Translations under genes and position numbers: made by a program
Shown here: piece after piece, positions 24,122-35,657 of the stretch
Numbering within the stretch: position 1 is the stretch's first letter
How the letters are laid out: each line of letters opens with the position of its first letter
Notes under the pieces: model-generated
What the model was told of the DNA's origin: nothing
Database searches by the model: none
What the model saw: the letters and a program-made list of their open reading frames with translations, nothing else
IMG/VR virus record: IMGVR_UViG_3300032163_000016
Coordinates: 1-58,494 of that record
Strand: one strand, 5' to 3'
Origin: a virus
Taxonomy: Duplodnaviria > Caudoviricetes
DNA length: 58,494 nucleotides

Positions 24122-24793
24122 ATGTGCTTTCTTGAGCCACGGGTACTGCGAATTACGACAGAGCAAAATCGCATACCAGACGCAGTTCTGGTTGACATTC
24201 TGTGTGTGTATGAATTCGCTAAGAGGGAAGACATTCCAGCACTGCCCAATGAGTTGATTTGCAAGCGAAACGGTGACTTCTGGACAACTTGGACAAAGGT
24301 TTTAGACATACGAGACAACAACAAGTCTATTCCACGCAAGGAGGACATCATGAACTCAGACCAAATTGAAACAAGGTGGCAGAGGAGTTACGAAGGCATT
24401 GTTGCCGACCGCCGTGATTTCAACTTGAAGGTGAGGGAAGTATTGGAACTCGCGAGGTCAATCTACGGATATGGCGAATATGACCGCGCCGTTCAGGAAA
24501 TAAAAAATCGGCGGTTGACGATCATCGGACGGGAGAAGCGCAAGCACTTCCCGCTCAAGAAATATCAGATGCTTTTCGGTAGGCAGAAGGGCAACTGCGG
24601 TATCTGTAGACTAGAGCTTGAGGTGGCAGGACCGCCGAATGTGATCGACCATAAAGACGTCAATCGGACGAAGGGATACAACTCCGACAGCAACTTGCAA
24701 CTCGTTCATAAGGACTGTAATGCGGAGAAGGCGGCCAAAAGCATCCCGCAGCAAGCGAAGCATTACGGGGAGACAATGATGGAGTTGATATGA
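24122..24793 (+). CDS. HNH endonuclease
   Basis: CGIC...IDHKD...NLQLVHKDCNAEK; a second strong SD with in-frame ATG lies at 24350. Confidence 0.8.
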   Translation: MCFLEPRVLRITTEQNRIPDAVLVDILCVYEFAKREDIPALPNELICKRNGDFWTTWTKVLDIRDNNKSIPRKEDIMNSDQIETRWQRSYEGIVADRRDFNLKVREVLELARSIYGYGEYDRAVQEIKNRRLTIIGREKRKHFPLKKYQMLFGRQKGNCGICRLELEVAGPPNVIDHKDVNRTKGYNSDSNLQLVHKDCNAEKAAKSIPQQAKHYGETMMELI

Positions 24794-25056
24794 ACCGCAC
24801 CCTGAAATTTTTTGCGCGCCCGAATCCGGTCTGGGGATTCATCTTACTGATGCTGATTGTTCTGGCGGCGTGGCTGATAGCGGGACTAATCATAGAGAAT
24901 CCCATAGTTGCCCGGGTCGCCGTTGCCGCGTTCTTGATTTTCCCAGTGGCATTTGTGGTGAGGGGTCTCGCCCTAACGTGGTACGAAGTCGAAGAGAAGG
25001 TGCGCGGATTTTTTGAAGCCATCAATGCAGAATCAACGAAGAGGGACTGCGACTAA
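24790..25056 (+). CDS. Two-TM membrane protein
   Basis: Two hydrophobic helices; ATGA overlap with the upstream gene. Confidence 0.65.
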   Translation: MNRTLKFFARPNPVWGFILLMLIVLAAWLIAGLIIENPIVARVAVAAFLIFPVAFVVRGLALTWYEVEEKVRGFFEAINAESTKRDCD

Positions 25057-26969
25057 TGAAGTTTCTGGACTGGAAATCTTGCTATAAAGAATCTGGCAAA
25101 AATCTCTGGGTCCCGTTAGCGTACACCCACCCAGCGAAGATGTCTGTCGGATTATGCCGCAAAATCTTCGCGTTTATGGAAGAGAAGGGGATGCTGAAGA
25201 AGGGGAATGTGGTCTGCGATCCCTTTGCGGGAATCTTCACGACGGGACTAATCGGAGCAATGAAGGGGTATCGGGTTGTGGGAGTTGAACTCGAAGAGAA
25301 GTTCTGCAAGTTGTCCAAGCAGAACATCGAGAAGAACCATAAGATTCTTGAGAGGCTTGGTGTGCCCATTCCTGAAATTTATCAAGCAGATAGTAGAAAA
25401 CTTTCAGAGGTGATCGCATTTCGCCAAGCCGTTGATCTCTTCGGCCTTCTGCTACATCCGCTCGGCGATGTCGTAGTCCAGTTTCGCCCAGACGAATTTC
25501 ATCCGACGCGCCAACTTGTTCTTGAAGATCATCAGACCCAGTTCCTTGCCCGATGCGTACAAAAAGTGGAAGGAATTGTGACAAGTCCACCATTTTCAAT
25601 GGCGAATTGCCAACCGGTTAGTTCGACGGTATTAGGATCGGGACAAGGAGTGCGGAGTAAATATAAGGAAATTGGTAAACGACCCGATGATAATTTGGGT
25701 GGAACCAAAGGACAGATTGCAATTTTGAAGGAAGGGTCCATCTCCGCCGTTCTGACAAGCCCGCCGTACGCAGATACTCCGACAAGCGCACAAAATGTTG
25801 GGAACACAATCAAGAAGAATTGGGGCAAGGGCAGAAGGCTTGTTGATGACAAAGAACCAAACTATGGAATGGAAGTTGGTCAAATCGGTTCTCTCAAAGA
25901 CAAAGGCATCGACGCCGTTATCACCTCGCCGCCCTATGCTGAGATACGACAGGATGGAGGTTCTACGAGACCCGGGTACACCGGCATGACGCCTTACAGC
26001 GGTGAACCCCGAAATGCTTGGCGAACGACTCGCAATCAAGAGAACATTGGCAATGTGCCCGAGGGCGATGTTGATAGTGTGATAGGAGGAACAACATGCG
26101 ATACTGTGAAGATTGTGGGAAATCAGTTGGTCCCCAAAGTAGATGGTGCAAGAAATGTTATCGATACCACATCGGGAGGCCGGGAGTCCCCAAGACAGAA
26201 GAACATAAGCGGAAGATCGGACTTGGACATCTCAACATCGCAGATCCGTTGCACTACGCCGACAAAAACAAGAATTGGAAAGGTGGAGATGAGAGGTGGA
26301 GGGGATTCGCGTGGAGAATCCAAAGACGTAAAGCACTCGCCCACGACAACTATCAATGCCGAAAATGTGGAGCACGAGAGTATCTCGTTGTCCATCACAA
26401 GAAAGACAAAACCCAAACAGGAGGGGAGTGGGACAACTCGATTGAAAACCTTGAAACACTCTGTCGAACCTGTCACAACCAGCATCACAGCAAGGACGAA
26501 AGAATCTACAGAATTAAATGCAAAGTTTGTGGCAACTATTACACTAGTAGAAGCGCGGTTCCAGGAGCCTGCTCCCGTAAGTGCAGGACAAAACTCAACA
26601 CAGCCAAGCACAGAAAATGGGTTCAAAAGAAACGAGCCGCCGACATATTGGTCGGAGATGGCCAAAATATATCTTGAATGCTGGAAGATTTTGAAACCTA
26701 ACGGGTATATGGCAATCACAGTTAAGGACTTTGTACGCGCAAAAAAGCGCGTACCCCTATGCGACAATACCGTGAAGTTGCTTGAGCATCTTGGATTCAA
26801 AGTCGAATACCGTGCCCGTGCTTGGTTGACTGAGGATTTAGGAACCCCCGATGCCTTCACGGGAAGGACCAAGAGCAAACAAAGGAAGTCATTTTTCAGA
26901 AGGCTGGCAGAAAGTAAAGGCAGTCCGAGGATAGATTGGGAGGAGGTTCTGATATGCCAGAAGATTTAA
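25056..26969 (+). CDS. Amino (N4C/N6A) DNA methyltransferase with triplicated SPP(Y/F) modules and two in-frame insertions
   Basis: HPAKM, DPFAGIFTTG and GVELE; TSPPF/TSPPY/TSPPY; C-terminal YWSEMAKIYLECWKILKPNG. Confidence 0.8.
   Translation: MKFLDWKSCYKESGKNLWVPLAYTHPAKMSVGLCRKIFAFMEEKGMLKKGNVVCDPFAGIFTTGLIGAMKGYRVVGVELEEKFCKLSKQNIEKNHKILERLGVPIPEIYQADSRKLSEVIAFRQAVDLFGLLLHPLGDVVVQFRPDEFHPTRQLVLEDHQTQFLARCVQKVEGIVTSPPFSMANCQPVSSTVLGSGQGVRSKYKEIGKRPDDNLGGTKGQIAILKEGSISAVLTSPPYADTPTSAQNVGNTIKKNWGKGRRLVDDKEPNYGMEVGQIGSLKDKGIDAVITSPPYAEIRQDGGSTRPGYTGMTPYSGEPRNAWRTTRNQENIGNVPEGDVDSVIGGTTCDTVKIVGNQLVPKVDGARNVIDTTSGGRESPRQKNISGRSDLDISTSQIRCTTPTKTRIGKVEMRGGGDSRGESKDVKHSPTTTINAENVEHESISLSITRKTKPKQEGSGTTRLKTLKHSVEPVTTSITARTKESTELNAKFVATITLVEARFQEPAPVSAGQNSTQPSTENGFKRNEPPTYWSEMAKIYLECWKILKPNGYMAITVKDFVRAKKRVPLCDNTVKLLEHLGFKVEYRARAWLTEDLGTPDAFTGRTKSKQRKSFFRRLAESKGSPRIDWEEVLICQKI
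25431..25562 (-). repeat. 132-bp inverted repeat, copy 2 (antisense exonuclease fragment inside the MTase gene)
   Basis: 129/132 identical to the reverse complement of 22406-22537. Confidence 0.95.
26096..26677 (+). CDS. HNH homing endonuclease nested in an alternative frame of the MTase
   Basis: AGGAGG SD at 26084-26089; Zn fingers; NUMOD3-like KTEEHKRKI; NWKGG; CRKC...VHH...NSIENLETLCRTCH. Confidence 0.85.
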   Translation: MRYCEDCGKSVGPQSRWCKKCYRYHIGRPGVPKTEEHKRKIGLGHLNIADPLHYADKNKNWKGGDERWRGFAWRIQRRKALAHDNYQCRKCGAREYLVVHHKKDKTQTGGEWDNSIENLETLCRTCHNQHHSKDERIYRIKCKVCGNYYTSRSAVPGACSRKCRTKLNTAKHRKWVQKKRAADILVGDGQNIS

Positions 26970-30924: not shown

Positions 30925-31545
30925 TTGGCAGAATCTTTTCGGGAAATGCCAAAAGCCCAAGCAGTTCGGTCCTGGACTCCGAGTGTCCGCAAAGAAGCCT
31001 TTGAGTGGTGTGTGAAGGCAAACGGGAAGGCTTGCGTCTCGGTGAAGCACGACGAAGGCCGTGCATTCCGTCAATGGGACATTCACCACAAGGATGGGGA
31101 CAGGACTCACAACCCGCCCGACGGGTCAAATTGGGCACTGATGTGTCACCCCTGCAATGTGAGAGAGTCGCCGCACGGCCCGCCCATGCACGATAGATTC
31201 AGCACTCACCTGCACTTCAAGGAGTCACGTACATACCAACGCACACGCGAGCGGCTAGCAGTGAAAACTCTTGCAATGCAGAGGAATGTGACTGCTGAGC
31301 CGATCGTACGCGAATTCGCCAGAGAGAAGATCAAAGAGAAGGGCGAGGTCGGGCTGGAGGATCTGATTGACGCGGCGGCGGAAGAGGTTTTAAGGCGGAC
31401 CAAAAGTAGGTGCAGTATAACGCAAGAACGCGTCCGGTTGTATTTGGACAAGATGTTGAATCCTTTGACGGGAGAGTATGAGATTTTTGAGGATGAGGAT
31501 GGAGTGGAATGGATAAGGAGACGGCAAGATGATTCGACGCATTGA
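30925..31545 (+). CDS. HNH-domain protein
   Basis: IHHKDGDRTHN...NWALMCHPCN; AAGGAG SD. Confidence 0.75.
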   Translation: MAESFREMPKAQAVRSWTPSVRKEAFEWCVKANGKACVSVKHDEGRAFRQWDIHHKDGDRTHNPPDGSNWALMCHPCNVRESPHGPPMHDRFSTHLHFKESRTYQRTRERLAVKTLAMQRNVTAEPIVREFAREKIKEKGEVGLEDLIDAAAEEVLRRTKSRCSITQERVRLYLDKMLNPLTGEYEIFEDEDGVEWIRRRQDDSTH

Positions 31546-32129: not shown

Positions 32130-32493
32130 TTGGGTCGCATCCATAGTTATTGCCGGAGTGTGTGTCTTAGCCGTTTTCCTGAGCGGTCTGGTTTTTAATG
32201 GACACCCAAGAAATGCTTGGGAGGATCTCTTAACACTTGCGGCACTGGGAATTTTGTTACTCGGCATCAACGTGTTATTGCTGCTTGCGGTTACGGGATT
32301 CTGGCAGTTTGGACTCTTTGTTGTAGAGAAATTGGCAATGCGCGGAAAAAAGACCCGCCACCTACCCCATACGTGCCTATGCTGGTTCTGGAACTGGCGA
32401 AGGGGATGGGAAGAGGTAGACAATCCTGATGGATTGTATCCGCTCGAAAGATGTCGCCGCTGCGGGATTCACAGAGAGAGGAAAAGGTACTAA
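32110..32493 (+). CDS. Membrane protein
   Basis: Two TM segments and a C-terminal CRRC. Confidence 0.55.
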   Translation: MNRANDNWVASIVIAGVCVLAVFLSGLVFNGHPRNAWEDLLTLAALGILLLGINVLLLLAVTGFWQFGLFVVEKLAMRGKKTRHLPHTCLCWFWNWRRGWEEVDNPDGLYPLERCRRCGIHRERKRY

Positions 32494-32711
32494 AAGCTTG
32501 GATCGCATCTGCATTGACTGCGCGTGTGGGTACTCATTCTGTTTGAGTCGCGCGGTATTGGAACATAGCACAGGTGGATTTTTCGAGTGCCCTGGAAAGG
32601 AGATAAAGCATTGTACGCGGCGATTTCGCCCCGCTGATATGCTGGCCCTAATGAACCGAGGCGAAAGAGAGTATAAGGTGGAAGAGAAACAAGAAAATCT
32701 AGAGTTGAACA

Positions 32712-34091
32712 GTGGATCACCTTGATTTGTTCTCAGGAATCGGTGGTTTCGCTCTCGCGGCGAAATGGGTTTGGAAGGATGAATACGTAAATGTCGGACA
32801 CTCGGAAATTGACAAATACTGCTGCCAAGTCTATCACAAGCGATTCCCCGAAAGCAAATGCTTCGGAGACATCACGAAGGTTGACTGGTCGAAAGTCAAA
32901 GCGAAACTCGTTACAGGGGGATTTCCTTGCCAGCCATTCAGTGTTGCCGGGAAGCGAAGAGGCAAGGCGGATGACCGCTACCTCTGGCCGCCAATGTTTG
33001 ATGCGATACGAGCAATTCATCCGAGGTTCGTGGTCGTTGAGAATGTGCCGGGTCTTGATGACAAAACCTATCTGGCACTCGATGGCTGTATCTCTGATTT
33101 GGAAAGCGCGGGCTACGAAGTCGCGCCGCCGTTTTGGATTCCAGCTTGTGCCATTGGTGCGCCGCATAAAAGGGAGAGAATTTGGATTCTTGCTCACCAC
33201 GCCAACATCAATGGATGGTATGCAAAGCAAGAAAAAACGAGATCGGCTTTTCATAACAAAAAACCAAACGGTGAGATACCGGGGCAAGGGCGGCAAAACA
33301 AGCAATGCGGGATTACGCAGTCAACTGGAACATTATCTTGCATTATTGCCAACACCAGAATCACGGGACTATCGGAGTCCAGACTGCAATCCAAAAACGA
33401 GAAGGCAACGTGTAAAGTCAGAACTCAACACGACCATAGGGTTAATTCCCACGCCGCGCCTAAAAATGGTGAACGGGCCAAGTCAATCAGAGATAGACGC
33501 AGGGGACCCGAAGCGGAGAATCGAGGTCACAATTGGAATGAACCCTGGCTTGAAGTTGCAACCCGCCTTTGTGGAACACCTAATGGGCTATCCGCTTGGC
33601 TGGACCGAAATAACGGAGGATTGAATGGGTCAACCGCAAAAAAGGTTACCCGACAAAATCTGCCCTATTTGTGGCACTATATTCAACAGGAAGCGATTCG
33701 GCAAGACCCTGGAGGATGCGAATCGATACCAGACACGCAAAACCTGTTCGCAGTCTTGTGGCAACACTTTACTCGAACCACTGGACAGAAGCACCTATTA
33801 CTTGAGAGCGCGGAAGCATCTGAAGCCCGCCTGCGAAACGTGTGGATCGAAAATCAAGTTGGACGTTCACCACAAAGACGGGAATATCAAGAACGAGCAA
33901 CCGGAGAATTTGCAGACGCTTTGCCACTGCTGTCACATGAAGTTGCATTGGCGACAGAGAAAATGGTGAAGCGGTATTCTGCCCATCGGGTGGACAGACT
34001 TAGAGCATTAGGCAACGCAATTATGTGGCAACTGGCCGCCGCGATGATGCAGGCCATGAAGGAAGTTGACGATAAGGAGATAGGAACATGA
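32712..34091 (+). CDS. C5-cytosine DNA methyltransferase, large (alpha) polypeptide lacking motif IX
   Basis: DLFSGIGG, GDI, GGFPCQPFS, ENV, HKRERIW and motif X RLRALGNAI. Confidence 0.9.
   Translation: MDHLDLFSGIGGFALAAKWVWKDEYVNVGHSEIDKYCCQVYHKRFPESKCFGDITKVDWSKVKAKLVTGGFPCQPFSVAGKRRGKADDRYLWPPMFDAIRAIHPRFVVVENVPGLDDKTYLALDGCISDLESAGYEVAPPFWIPACAIGAPHKRERIWILAHHANINGWYAKQEKTRSAFHNKKPNGEIPGQGRQNKQCGITQSTGTLSCIIANTRITGLSESRLQSKNEKATCKVRTQHDHRVNSHAAPKNGERAKSIRDRRRGPEAENRGHNWNEPWLEVATRLCGTPNGLSAWLDRNNGGLNGSTAKKVTRQNLPYLWHYIQQEAIRQDPGGCESIPDTQNLFAVLWQHFTRTTGQKHLLLESAEASEARLRNVWIENQVGRSPQRREYQERATGEFADALPLLSHEVALATEKMVKRYSAHRVDRLRALGNAIMWQLAAAMMQAMKEVDDKEIGT
32791..33624 (+). CDS. Overlapping beta polypeptide of the C5 MTase (TRD repeats plus motif IX); true start uncertain (e.g. 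32971)
   Basis: LLTTPT/LLPTP/LIPTP repeats and LQPAFVEHLMGYPLGWT in the +1 frame, as in the M.EcoHK31I alpha/beta arrangement. Confidence 0.75.
   Translation: MSDTRKLTNTAAKSITSDSPKANASETSRRLTGRKSKRNSLQGDFLASHSVLPGSEEARRMTATSGRQCLMRYEQFIRGSWSLRMCRVLMTKPIWHSMAVSLIWKARATKSRRRFGFQLVPLVRRIKGREFGFLLTTPTSMDGMQSKKKRDRLFITKNQTVRYRGKGGKTSNAGLRSQLEHYLALLPTPESRDYRSPDCNPKTRRQRVKSELNTTIGLIPTPRLKMVNGPSQSEIDAGDPKRRIEVTIGMNPGLKLQPAFVEHLMGYPLGWTEITED
33625..33969 (+). CDS. HNH endonuclease nested in the C5 MTase gene
   Basis: GGAGG SD; CPIC...TCSQSC; CETC...VHHKDGNIKNEQPENLQTLCHCCH. Confidence 0.85.
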   Translation: MGQPQKRLPDKICPICGTIFNRKRFGKTLEDANRYQTRKTCSQSCGNTLLEPLDRSTYYLRARKHLKPACETCGSKIKLDVHHKDGNIKNEQPENLQTLCHCCHMKLHWRQRKW

Positions 34092-34228
34092 AACTCCGAT
34101 GGTTTTTGATTTTGGGTGGAGTTGTGCTGGCAGTTGCGATTGTACGGTATTTGCATCCCAGAAGGCGCCGCCCCGATGTGACAAAGATATTTGACGGCAT
34201 AATGGATTTCGTCGATGAGAGGGAGTGA
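34088..34228 (+). CDS. Small membrane peptide (46 aa, not in the ORF track)
   Basis: AGGAG SD; MKLRWFLILGGVVLAVAIVRYL...; fills the gap exactly. Confidence 0.55.
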   Translation: MKLRWFLILGGVVLAVAIVRYLHPRRRRPDVTKIFDGIMDFVDERE

Positions 34229-34921
34229 ATGCTGAAGAAGTCACAAGGGAACATGTATCCTTGGACAAGCCACACGCACAGTCATCTTGGTGGTGAATGT
34301 CCACACAAATGCGTCTACTGTTACATGAACCATCCTCGCTTCGGCAGGGCAGCGCGATACACAGGCAGGGTGCGGCTAATAGAGTCGGAATTGAGCGTAA
34401 ACTATGGTACGGGCAAAGTAATCTTCATCGAACACACCGGCGACATAATGGCGCGAGATGTGCCAAGCGAATTCGTGGACAAGATACTCACGCATTGTAG
34501 AGCGTATCCCGAAAATGAATACGTATTCCAGTCGAAAAATCCAAGAAGATTCCTTGAGTTTCGCGGTAAATTCCCGCCGAAGATCATGCTTGGCACAACG
34601 ATTGAGACAAACCGCACCATCGAGGGTATCTCGGAGGCCCCTACACCAGAGCAAAGATACTGGGGCATGCTTTCTTTGAGAATACTTGCCGCAAATTGTC
34701 CAACATTTCTTACGATTGAACCAGTCCTTGACTTTGATGTTCGGATACTCGGTGCTTGGATTATCAACTTAGATCCGCACTTTGTAAATATCGGTGCAGA
34801 CTCAAAGAACCACAAACTCGTCGAGCCGAGAAGAGAAAAGGTTGTGGCCCTAATGGACTATCTCAAGAAGAGCGGGATTGAACTTCGAGAGAAACACAAC
34901 TTGAATCGGTTGATCAAATGA
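34229..34921 (+). CDS. Radical-SAM protein (gp37/gp68/DUF5131-like)
   Basis: CPHKCVYCY, FQSKNP, GTTIETNR, TIEP and VNIGADS. Confidence 0.85.
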   Translation: MLKKSQGNMYPWTSHTHSHLGGECPHKCVYCYMNHPRFGRAARYTGRVRLIESELSVNYGTGKVIFIEHTGDIMARDVPSEFVDKILTHCRAYPENEYVFQSKNPRRFLEFRGKFPPKIMLGTTIETNRTIEGISEAPTPEQRYWGMLSLRILAANCPTFLTIEPVLDFDVRILGAWIINLDPHFVNIGADSKNHKLVEPRREKVVALMDYLKKSGIELREKHNLNRLIK

Positions 34922-35165: not shown

Positions 35166-35657
35166 ATGAACATTGAGCGAATATGGGAAATGCCGAATCG
35201 CTACACCTTCAAAATGCGGGCAGTAGACCGTCTTTTGAGGCAGGAAATGTCTGGCACTTGGATTGATCCTTTCTCTGGCCTGTTTAGCCCTGCGCAGATT
35301 CGCAACGACGCAGATGAGGCATTACCGGCGGATTCGCATGTTGATGGCTTGGAGTTTCTGCGGACATTACCAGCGAAGAATTTTGACGGAGTGCTGTTTG
35401 ACCCGCCCTATTCATGCGAACAAGCTCTCAGGAAATACAAGCCGCGACAGAATGGAACGGCTGGACGCGCTGAATACTGGGCCAAATGCAAGGACGAGAT
35501 TGCTCGCATTGTCAGGCCAGGCGGGAAGGCCATCTGTTTCGGGTGGGACTCTACGGGTATCGGTAAGAAGCGTGGTTTTAGACTCGAACGTATTTTGTTG
35601 CTGTGCCACGGAGCGTGTCACAACGACACGATTATCACGGTGGAGTTAAGTATATAA
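35166..35657 (+). CDS. Small adenine-type DNA methyltransferase-like protein
   Basis: WIDPFSG, VLFDPPYS, RIVRPGG and CHGACHND. Confidence 0.8.
   Translation: MNIERIWEMPNRYTFKMRAVDRLLRQEMSGTWIDPFSGLFSPAQIRNDADEALPADSHVDGLEFLRTLPAKNFDGVLFDPPYSCEQALRKYKPRQNGTAGRAEYWAKCKDEIARIVRPGGKAICFGWDSTGIGKKRGFRLERILLLCHGACHNDTIITVELSI

Follow-up and report, generated by a model that had tools for sequence, protein, structure and literature searches.

A likely homing-type HNH nuclease gene hidden in another reading frame of a two-frame C5 DNA methyltransferase gene of a sediment phage

The DNA analysed here, referred to as the window, is a complete virus record of 58,494 base pairs with direct terminal repeats, recovered from a sediment metagenome (IMG/VR record IMGVR_UViG_3300032163_000016). 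Its C5 DNA methyltransferase gene contains, in a different reading frame, a small HNH endonuclease gene that is likely to be a mobile gene of the homing type, residing in its host gene without an intron or an intein. The locus is on the plus strand and is made up of a large open reading frame (ORF) for the large methyltransferase subunit (alpha, 32712-34091), a second ORF nested in alpha in the +1 frame that probably encodes the small subunit (beta, 32791-33624), and the HNH ORF (33625-33969), which follows beta in beta's frame. In the best-supported reading of the sequence, alpha would be translated straight through the HNH stretch in its own frame, with nothing spliced out.

The HNH ORF has 114 codons, with its ATG at 33625 and its TGA ending at 33969. 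The ATG directly follows the TGA of beta (33622-33624), which creates a stop-start junction with no gap (33622-33627), and a GGAGG Shine-Dalgarno sequence lies inside the last beta codons (33615-33619), five bases 5' of the ATG. The original prediction had described this arrangement and had placed the nuclease between SAWLDR of alpha (residues 294-299, 33591-33608) and RVDRLRALGNAI; coordinates, length and both landmarks are all correct. The encoded protein has a CxxC zinc ribbon at its N-terminus together with an HNH core. A database search returned 63 homologues with 44-80% identity, and an 18-row alignment of the family (A1) shows no variation at C70, C73, H82, H83, N95, C100, H104 and H108, which comprise the zinc ligands and the residues of the HNH motif. 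The Pfam HNH family (PF01844) is matched by 14 of the 18 aligned members, the closest group among PHROGs is phrog_1271, annotated as HNH endonuclease (E value 2.4e-10), and the AlphaFold2 (AF2) model has a mean predicted local distance difference test score (pLDDT) of 87.3. These features, with the substitution pattern given below, indicate a genuine and selected HNH gene.

The alpha ORF has 459 codons, from a GTG at 32712 to a TGA ending at 34091. It has no stop between 32712 and 34089, and the third frame of the same span contains 29. Alpha matches PF00145 (DNA_methylase) over residues 2-277 with an E value of 1.6e-42, the only Pfam family matched, and phrog_363 over residues 1-454 with an E value of 2.2e-63. 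Motifs I-VIII, in the numbering that we take to apply to C5 methyltransferases, are located in the N-terminal 165 residues, followed by a long unconstrained linker and a C-terminal motif X. The latter, RVDRLRALGNAI, occupies residues 426-437 (33987-34022) and is identified by invariant columns and by alpha-frame selection downstream; R426, G434 and N435 are invariant across a 16-row alpha alignment. The AF2 model of alpha alone reflects the same layout, with pLDDT of 80-93 over most of residues 1-165 and up to 86 in the C-terminal helix, and low values overall from 167 to 413 (below 50 at 167-280 and 339-413). A search with alpha in viral contigs gave three loci only, all on contigs already represented among the relatives (L005-L007).

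Counts of nucleotide mismatches by alpha codon position, taken from pairwise nucleotide alignments, show which frame is selected in each region. In the HNH-bearing set of 23 sequences (the window and 22 loci), the region of motifs IV-VIII has 3381, 2505 and 5894 mismatches at alpha positions 1, 2 and 3, the peak expected for selection on alpha. From motif VIII to the HNH the counts are 347/240/254, with the peak at alpha position 1, which is the third position of beta, and over the HNH stretch they are 3559/1866/2095 (88 pairs), with the peak at the third position of the HNH frame. After the HNH, selection on alpha returns (543/394/927). The HNH-free set of 70 loci behaves in the same way: alpha is selected in motifs IV-VIII (40130/24870/74307), beta in the middle (9502/5476/5444, 307 pairs) and alpha in the C-terminal region (1888/1330/4857). 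Because third-position peaks in the alpha frame occur at the two ends only, alpha appears to be constrained as a protein only there, while its middle and the HNH stretch are merely kept free of stops. A candidate conserved alpha-frame domain over the HNH, suggested by strings such as LPYLW, LFAVLW and LRNVW, was rejected, as these are the -1 frame reading of the CxxC, CSQSCGN and HH motifs of the nuclease; the substitutions over the insert track the HNH frame, which further rules the domain out.

The absence of stops in alpha across the HNH is itself informative. When synonymous HNH codons were swapped among positions with the same residue, the alpha frame was stop-free in only 0.2% and 0.34% of permutations in two runs, with 0 stops seen and 4.5 expected. 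The same test gave P <=0.01 in 24 of 29 loci. Among 80 viral contig loci returned with relatives of the window HNH, 38 (L003-L040) were compared for layout, and the alpha-equivalent frame is open across the whole HNH match in 37 of them, over spans of 304-696 codons, the exception being L040. The other frames of two HNH genes that stand free in this phage contain 9-15 stops. Since permutations are so rarely stop-free and 37 of 38 related loci are open, the openness of alpha across the HNH is selected. The original prediction had described alpha as open through about 120 extra codons; the openness stands, and the length becomes about 126 codons when measured against HNH-free relatives. It had also named a degenerate or untranslated motif X, or an open frame not conserved among homologues, as what would speak against it. 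Motif X is intact and selected in the alpha frame, and the open frame is conserved.

This selected openness bears on the possibility that the insert is lost by splicing, through a self-splicing intron that escaped recognition or an intein of unusual type, the open alpha frame being incidental or serving a precursor. Homing endonucleases borne by introns and inteins are selfish nuclease genes placed at conserved sites of host genes, patchy in distribution, with host function preserved, and group I introns are the classical carriers of homing HNH genes. Covariance searches detect known ribozyme families only; within that limit, no Rfam family reached its gathering score anywhere in the window, and no intron family matched 33000-34400 at E values up to 5. 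An intron needs no open host frame, yet here the openness is selected (P ~0.003). An intein would hold the nuclease in the frame of the host together with Hint motifs; Pfam gave no Hint or intein match in alpha at E values up to 0.1, and the nuclease is in another frame than the host. Inteins end in His-Asn followed by Cys, Ser or Thr, while the alpha-frame insert ends in ...SAH followed by R. Finally, the HNH frame is the only one under selection across the insert. Removal of the insert by splicing is thus highly improbable, and direct read-through of alpha is preferred.

The host into which the HNH is placed has its own overlap. Beta has 277 codons in the +1 frame of alpha. Its 5' limit at 32791 is the ORF limit and its start codon is putative; its C-terminus reads ...LQPAFVEHLMGYPLGWTEITED, and TPTxxD-like repeats occur within it. 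Its identification as a protein draws on a match to phrog_1008 (E value 4.3e-20), 30 homologues in a protein database search and the mismatch pattern. No Pfam family matched beta, a search of its profile (A4) against PDB sequences gave one chance-level row only (E value 0.33), and tblastn of its middle (33190-33621) against phages gave no matches at 1e-5, the relatives having come through PHROGs and the protein database. Beta probably supplies target recognition and a segment resembling motif IX, if its LMGYPLGWT can be equated with that motif, as we assume. Nearly every one of 80 related methylase loci, the best 80 of 569 relatives, shows alpha with a nested beta, a layout that is close to universal in this methylase family (L089-L167). 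The annotation of this layout is inconsistent: Paenibacillus phage Diva labels its beta 'g49 internal gene', the alpha of Komagataeibacter phage phiKX1 is unannotated, and beta-like ORFs are listed as 'hypothetical protein'. Literature searches on overlapping cytosine-methyltransferase frames, overprinted HNH genes and the 'internal gene' of Paenibacillus phages found nothing relevant.

A model of the alpha-beta complex supports the view that the host is a two-subunit methylase written in two frames. The interaction prediction score from aligned errors (ipSAE) is 0.83, and the best of three controls reached 0.00; in a benchmark that is rough, since own alignments were used, 116 of 157 solved complexes attained this mark, as did 2 of 215 mismatched pairs. 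The runs share at least 55% of contacts, and the partner pLDDT is 55-58. In the modelled interface, the motif I, motif VIII and motif X helix regions of alpha meet beta residues 77-121 and 254-275, the latter packing against the motif X helix, and the HNH-overprinted part of alpha lies outside the interface.

The same data can be set against a single-chain host made by two programmed frameshifts, the first leading out of alpha into beta behind motif VIII and the second returning to alpha ahead of motif X. The alpha read-through would then not be the functional product. Motifs I-VIII of alpha, the middle of beta and motif X of alpha would give the canonical order of C5 motifs, and the first TPT repeat of beta begins exactly where motif VIII ends. 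Such a model needs no open alpha middle, which is nevertheless open in the window (P=0.0028) and in nearly all loci. The beta frame is also kept stop-free over some 100 codons 5' of the presumed shift, into the catalytic region of alpha (permutation P mostly 0.003-0.3 per locus, 0.042 in the window), and the N-terminal half of beta (residues 77-121) contacts alpha in the complex model. The known enzyme M.EcoHK31I works as two chains (PMC2836561, passages on its subunits). These points make the frameshifted single chain very unlikely, and even with frameshifts the HNH-overprinted stretch must be read in the alpha frame. One database protein (P0087) does pass from an alpha-frame start (…GGFPCQP) to the beta frame (…SVLPGSEEARRMT…); its sequence suggests either a one-base indel or contig error, or a natural frameshifted allele.

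With a two-chain host as the preferred reading, the position of the insert can be defined by comparison with HNH-free alleles. Protein alignment against HNH-free relatives (L135, L155, L147, L122, L125) shows about 126 extra alpha codons between ...GLSAWL and DRLRALGNA, and the insertion as read in alpha covers about 126-130 codons at approximately 33603-33986. Short contig joints from 33572 to 33982, 33985 or 33988, a net difference of 390 nucleotides, are a weak hint in the same direction, with sides of 20-21 letters and from methylases of other organisms. Nucleotide alignment of the sister alleles L096, L015 and L022 was tried for the boundaries and discarded, as their identity is about 63% and the gap was misplaced. 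In HNH-free alleles of the subfamily, the same nucleotides encode the ...PxGWT[D/E]L end of beta and the ...RVDRL lead-in of alpha to motif X. In the window, this doubly coded segment is present twice. The upstream copy (33592-33612) is the C-terminal motif PLGWTEI of beta (family consensus MGYPxGWTDL). The downstream copy (33982-34002) reads PIGWTDL in the beta/HNH frame, followed by EH and a stop at 34009-34011, and AHRVDRL in alpha, leading into motif X. Both host proteins are intact because a copy of the segment is present on each side of the insert. Second copies also occur in L003, L004, L027, L029 and L030, and in an AT-rich clade (L013-L023) the HNH ORF runs straight into the old tail and stop of beta.

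The distribution of the HNH is that of a patchy insert, as far as related sequences tell. It is found inside the gene in 2 of the 80 related methylase loci (again the best 80 of 569), the other 78 being without insert. On a FastTree tree of 87 alpha rows, 17 of them with HNH, 10 label changes are needed and the mean for shuffled labels is 15.8; no fewer than 2 are forced by the starred branches. Members of this HNH family are also found in canonical single-chain C5 methylases, upstream of motif IX (L034, L037 and gp45 of Staphylococcus phage CUB-EPI_14). Two cultured phages carry relatives of the HNH that escaped annotation. In phage CUB-EPI_14 (L084, ON325435.2, 842-2647), it is hidden in gp45, annotated only as DNA-cytosine methyltransferase, and in Komagataeibacter phage phiKX1 (L083, LC644975.1, 860-2506) it is hidden in an unannotated alpha frame of 549 codons. 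At two of the 80 methylase loci, L117 and L142, HNH relatives stand free near HNH-free methylase genes (E values 8e-8 and 9e-7).

A methylase gene always accompanies the nuclease on the DNA, and this would also suit an HNH that has ceased to home or never did. It might be a permanent companion of the methylase, such as a small nuclease of restriction type from whose damage the methylase protects, or it might serve the phage. Section 4.2 of a 2025 study of a similar case (PMC11855218) raises co-option for DNA binding as a possibility. A fixed partner should not be missing from nearly all relatives nor be patchy on the methylase tree, and the occurrence of one HNH family in different methylase subfamilies, including single-chain ones, is better accommodated by a mobile element; the free-standing relatives near methylase genes also count against the fixed-partner view. 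A non-homing role is therefore unlikely, and the HNH is probably a selfish DNA-cutting gene.

The homing-type reading, which is the likely one, can be set out as follows. Alpha would supply the catalytic large domain (motifs I-VIII) and the C-terminal motif X helix, between which any stop-free linker would suffice, and beta, nested in that linker, would supply the selected middle part and assemble with alpha. The HNH cassette sits at the end of beta, just 5' of motif X, its 5' end bringing the GGAGG, the beta stop and the ATG, with its codons arranged such that alpha meets no stop and with the shared segment (PxGWT[D/E][I/L] in beta, RVDRL in alpha) doubled to leave one copy per side. Alpha would then be read straight through, unspliced, and some 126 additional residues would form a floppy loop in it. 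The insert would be tolerated because the alpha linker is unconstrained and beta is made as its own chain. Beta would be made from the nested frame, and the HNH from its own Shine-Dalgarno sequence, probably helped by ribosomes terminating on beta. The nuclease would presumably cut HNH-free alleles near the conserved site and be copied in by repair.

The proposed translation route follows from the stop-start junction and the GGAGG, which suggest that ribosomes reach the HNH start both through its own Shine-Dalgarno sequence and after terminating on beta. The distance from the upstream same-frame stop to the HNH start is 0 in 12 of 29 related loci and at most 30 nucleotides in all 29. A GGAGG is found 10-16 bases 5' of the HNH start in 8 of the 29 and is present in the clade of the window. 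A scan of 32300-34300 for promoters and terminators gave no promoter-like site on the plus strand and no terminator-like site. A more tentative proposal, somewhat less likely than not, is that the element is adapted to two-frame methylases: it would enter the frame of beta, end beta by its own stop, borrow the terminating ribosomes and duplicate the doubly coded segment, allowing both subunits to survive, with alpha, beta and HNH all read from one DNA stretch.

Several points weigh against this account. The window HNH taken alone falls under the Pfam gathering cut-off (17.8 against 21.4 bits), and Foldseek of its model found no PDB match at E values up to 0.001, HNH nucleases appearing in weak rows only. 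Motif X of the window reads GNAIMWQ where the family consensus is GNAIVPQ. The mismatch counts use pairs that are not independent of one another. The HNH rows of the tree came from an HNH-based search and the HNH-free rows from a methylase-based search, and the starred branches force only two changes. The pass of the complex model may come from likeness to solved single-chain C5 methyltransferases. Finally, the case against splicing is inferred from null searches for known signatures, which a novel ribozyme would escape.

A comparable element has been described. Arsenault, Gosselin and Gogarten (2025, Genes 16:178, PMC11855218) report the ShiLan domain, a hidden out-of-frame HNH in the DNA methylase gp65 of mycobacteriophage ShiLan, and in the same paper a separate and different insertion in a different methylase, gp60 of Pacc40. 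As in the ShiLan case as presented there, the window has an insertion in a methylase gene across which the host frame is free of stops, an HNH that is read in a different frame and neither intron nor intein detected, together with a disjunct distribution among related methylases and a host-frame reading predicted to form a poorly ordered loop. According to section 3.6 of that paper, phages Tiff81 and Sashimi have a free-standing HNH 5' of their methylase, an arrangement that the free-standing relatives at L117 and L142 recall. There are also clear differences. The HNH belongs to another family: tblastn of both hidden HNHs of the window (the second is described below) against 50,697 phage records gave 19 and 25 matches at E values up to 1e-3, with no Mycobacterium phage among them at that threshold. 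The nuclease has 114 residues here and 195 in ShiLan (PMC11855218). Here there are a clear GGAGG and a stop-start junction with the translated ORF upstream, while for ShiLan the relevant passages of PMC11855218 state that no ribosome-binding site was found and propose leaderless initiation. The two-frame alpha/beta host, the two copies of the doubly coded segment flanking the insert and the presence of two such elements within one genome are further departures from the ShiLan case. Judged by sequence comparison, the window HNH is the same kind of element as ShiLan in a different sequence family.

The host resembles M.EcoHK31I, in which beta is wholly within alpha in another frame and both chains must associate for activity (PMC2836561, in the passages on the two chains). 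As described there, its alpha carries motifs I-VIII and X with beta nested in the other frame, a layout that the window shares. Its alpha is said in those passages to hold the target-recognition domain too, with beta contributing only motif IX (PMC2836561). In the window, unlike M.EcoHK31I, no part of the middle of alpha is selected as protein, and the selected sequence is that of beta; the two systems are likened by layout. The passages of PMC2836561 on this enzyme describe no HNH insert. In comparison with the homing genes of introns and inteins, no splicing apparatus is detected here, and host function would be kept by stop-free read-through in the other frame.

The principle was published in 2025 in PMC11855218 and, set beside its account of ShiLan and Pacc40, the present locus is a further clear example with new details. 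These are a smaller and different HNH family, an alpha/beta host, a stop-start junction with a strong Shine-Dalgarno sequence, a duplicated segment and two elements per genome. A large and well-sampled lineage is thereby added to a class of homing-type nuclease genes that can do without introns and inteins because the host frame stays readable across them. A linker that tolerates any stop-free sequence explains the harmlessness of the insert, and the HNH start abutting a stop behind a strong Shine-Dalgarno sequence is a testable route of translation. If the tentative proposal of an element adapted to two-frame methylases is true, it would answer how hidden HNH genes are translated, a question left open in PMC11855218; it would also make the unconstrained linker of two-subunit methylases a favoured entry site for selfish genes that do without splicing. 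The hidden copies in the cultured phages CUB-EPI_14 (gp45) and phiKX1 are usable experimental systems. In annotation, gene callers overlook one or another of the three ORFs at loci of this kind.

The second hidden HNH of the phage (26096-26677, plus strand) has 193 residues and lies in the +2 frame of an N6/N4 methyltransferase ORF at 25056-26969. It matches PF01844 with an E value of 5.6e-8 and is preceded by a GGAGG at 26085-26089, and the host ORF matches N6_N4_Mtase (PF01555, E value 7.5e-12). The host frame is free of stops across this HNH (permutation P=0.032). Relatives are few, with 2 homologues in the protein database and 1 locus in the metagenome scan, and in the viral contig scan matches were to the C-terminal zinc ribbon only. 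In L177 (56% identity), the only relative with DNA, the host frame is open over all 401 codons of the contig (P=0.15). The two hidden HNHs are alike over the HNH core only (38% identity over 53 residues) and belong to different subfamilies, which agrees with the difference between the copies at 33625 and 26096 first remarked upon from the sequence. Two separate insertions, of different HNH subfamilies into different classes of methylase, would be the simplest reading. As to the earlier claim that splice-free dual coding arose twice in this genome, both host frames are open and the layouts are kept in relatives (37 of 38 loci for the C5 gene, L177 for the N6/N4 gene), and the splice-free part of the claim leans on null searches. 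The proposal that these are a recurrent class of element is borne out and, from the cases given in PMC11855218, already in print.

The C5 methylase/HNH gene also varies at the level of the population. A contig of 3,031 nucleotides (X3) from another sediment sample, with a depth of 11.4 and flanks that differ from the window at 4-7 positions, joins 32702 to 34064 with 5 foreign letters between and sides of 255 letters, such that the whole methylase gene (32703-34063) is missing. Methylase and HNH contigs are also present in the same run, with a depth of about 3. X3 thus represents a near-identical phage without the gene and shares its run with gene-bearing contigs, and the gene is therefore an accessory, dispensable cassette between two genes. 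Another contig, X1, is possibly the source of the window itself and is not independent of it.

The phage is unusually rich in methylases. A third methyltransferase gene at 28308-28973 matches N6_N4_Mtase with an E value of 4.6e-22, and the ORF at 35166-35657, which has no Pfam match, contains FDPPYS, presumably a typical N6/N4 methylase motif. Free-standing HNH genes at 24122-24793 and 30925-31545 (Pfam HNH, E values 4.7e-5 and 3.8e-4) bring the HNH ORFs of the phage to four. Elsewhere in the genome, 6120-13919 is a single ORF of 2,599 codons.

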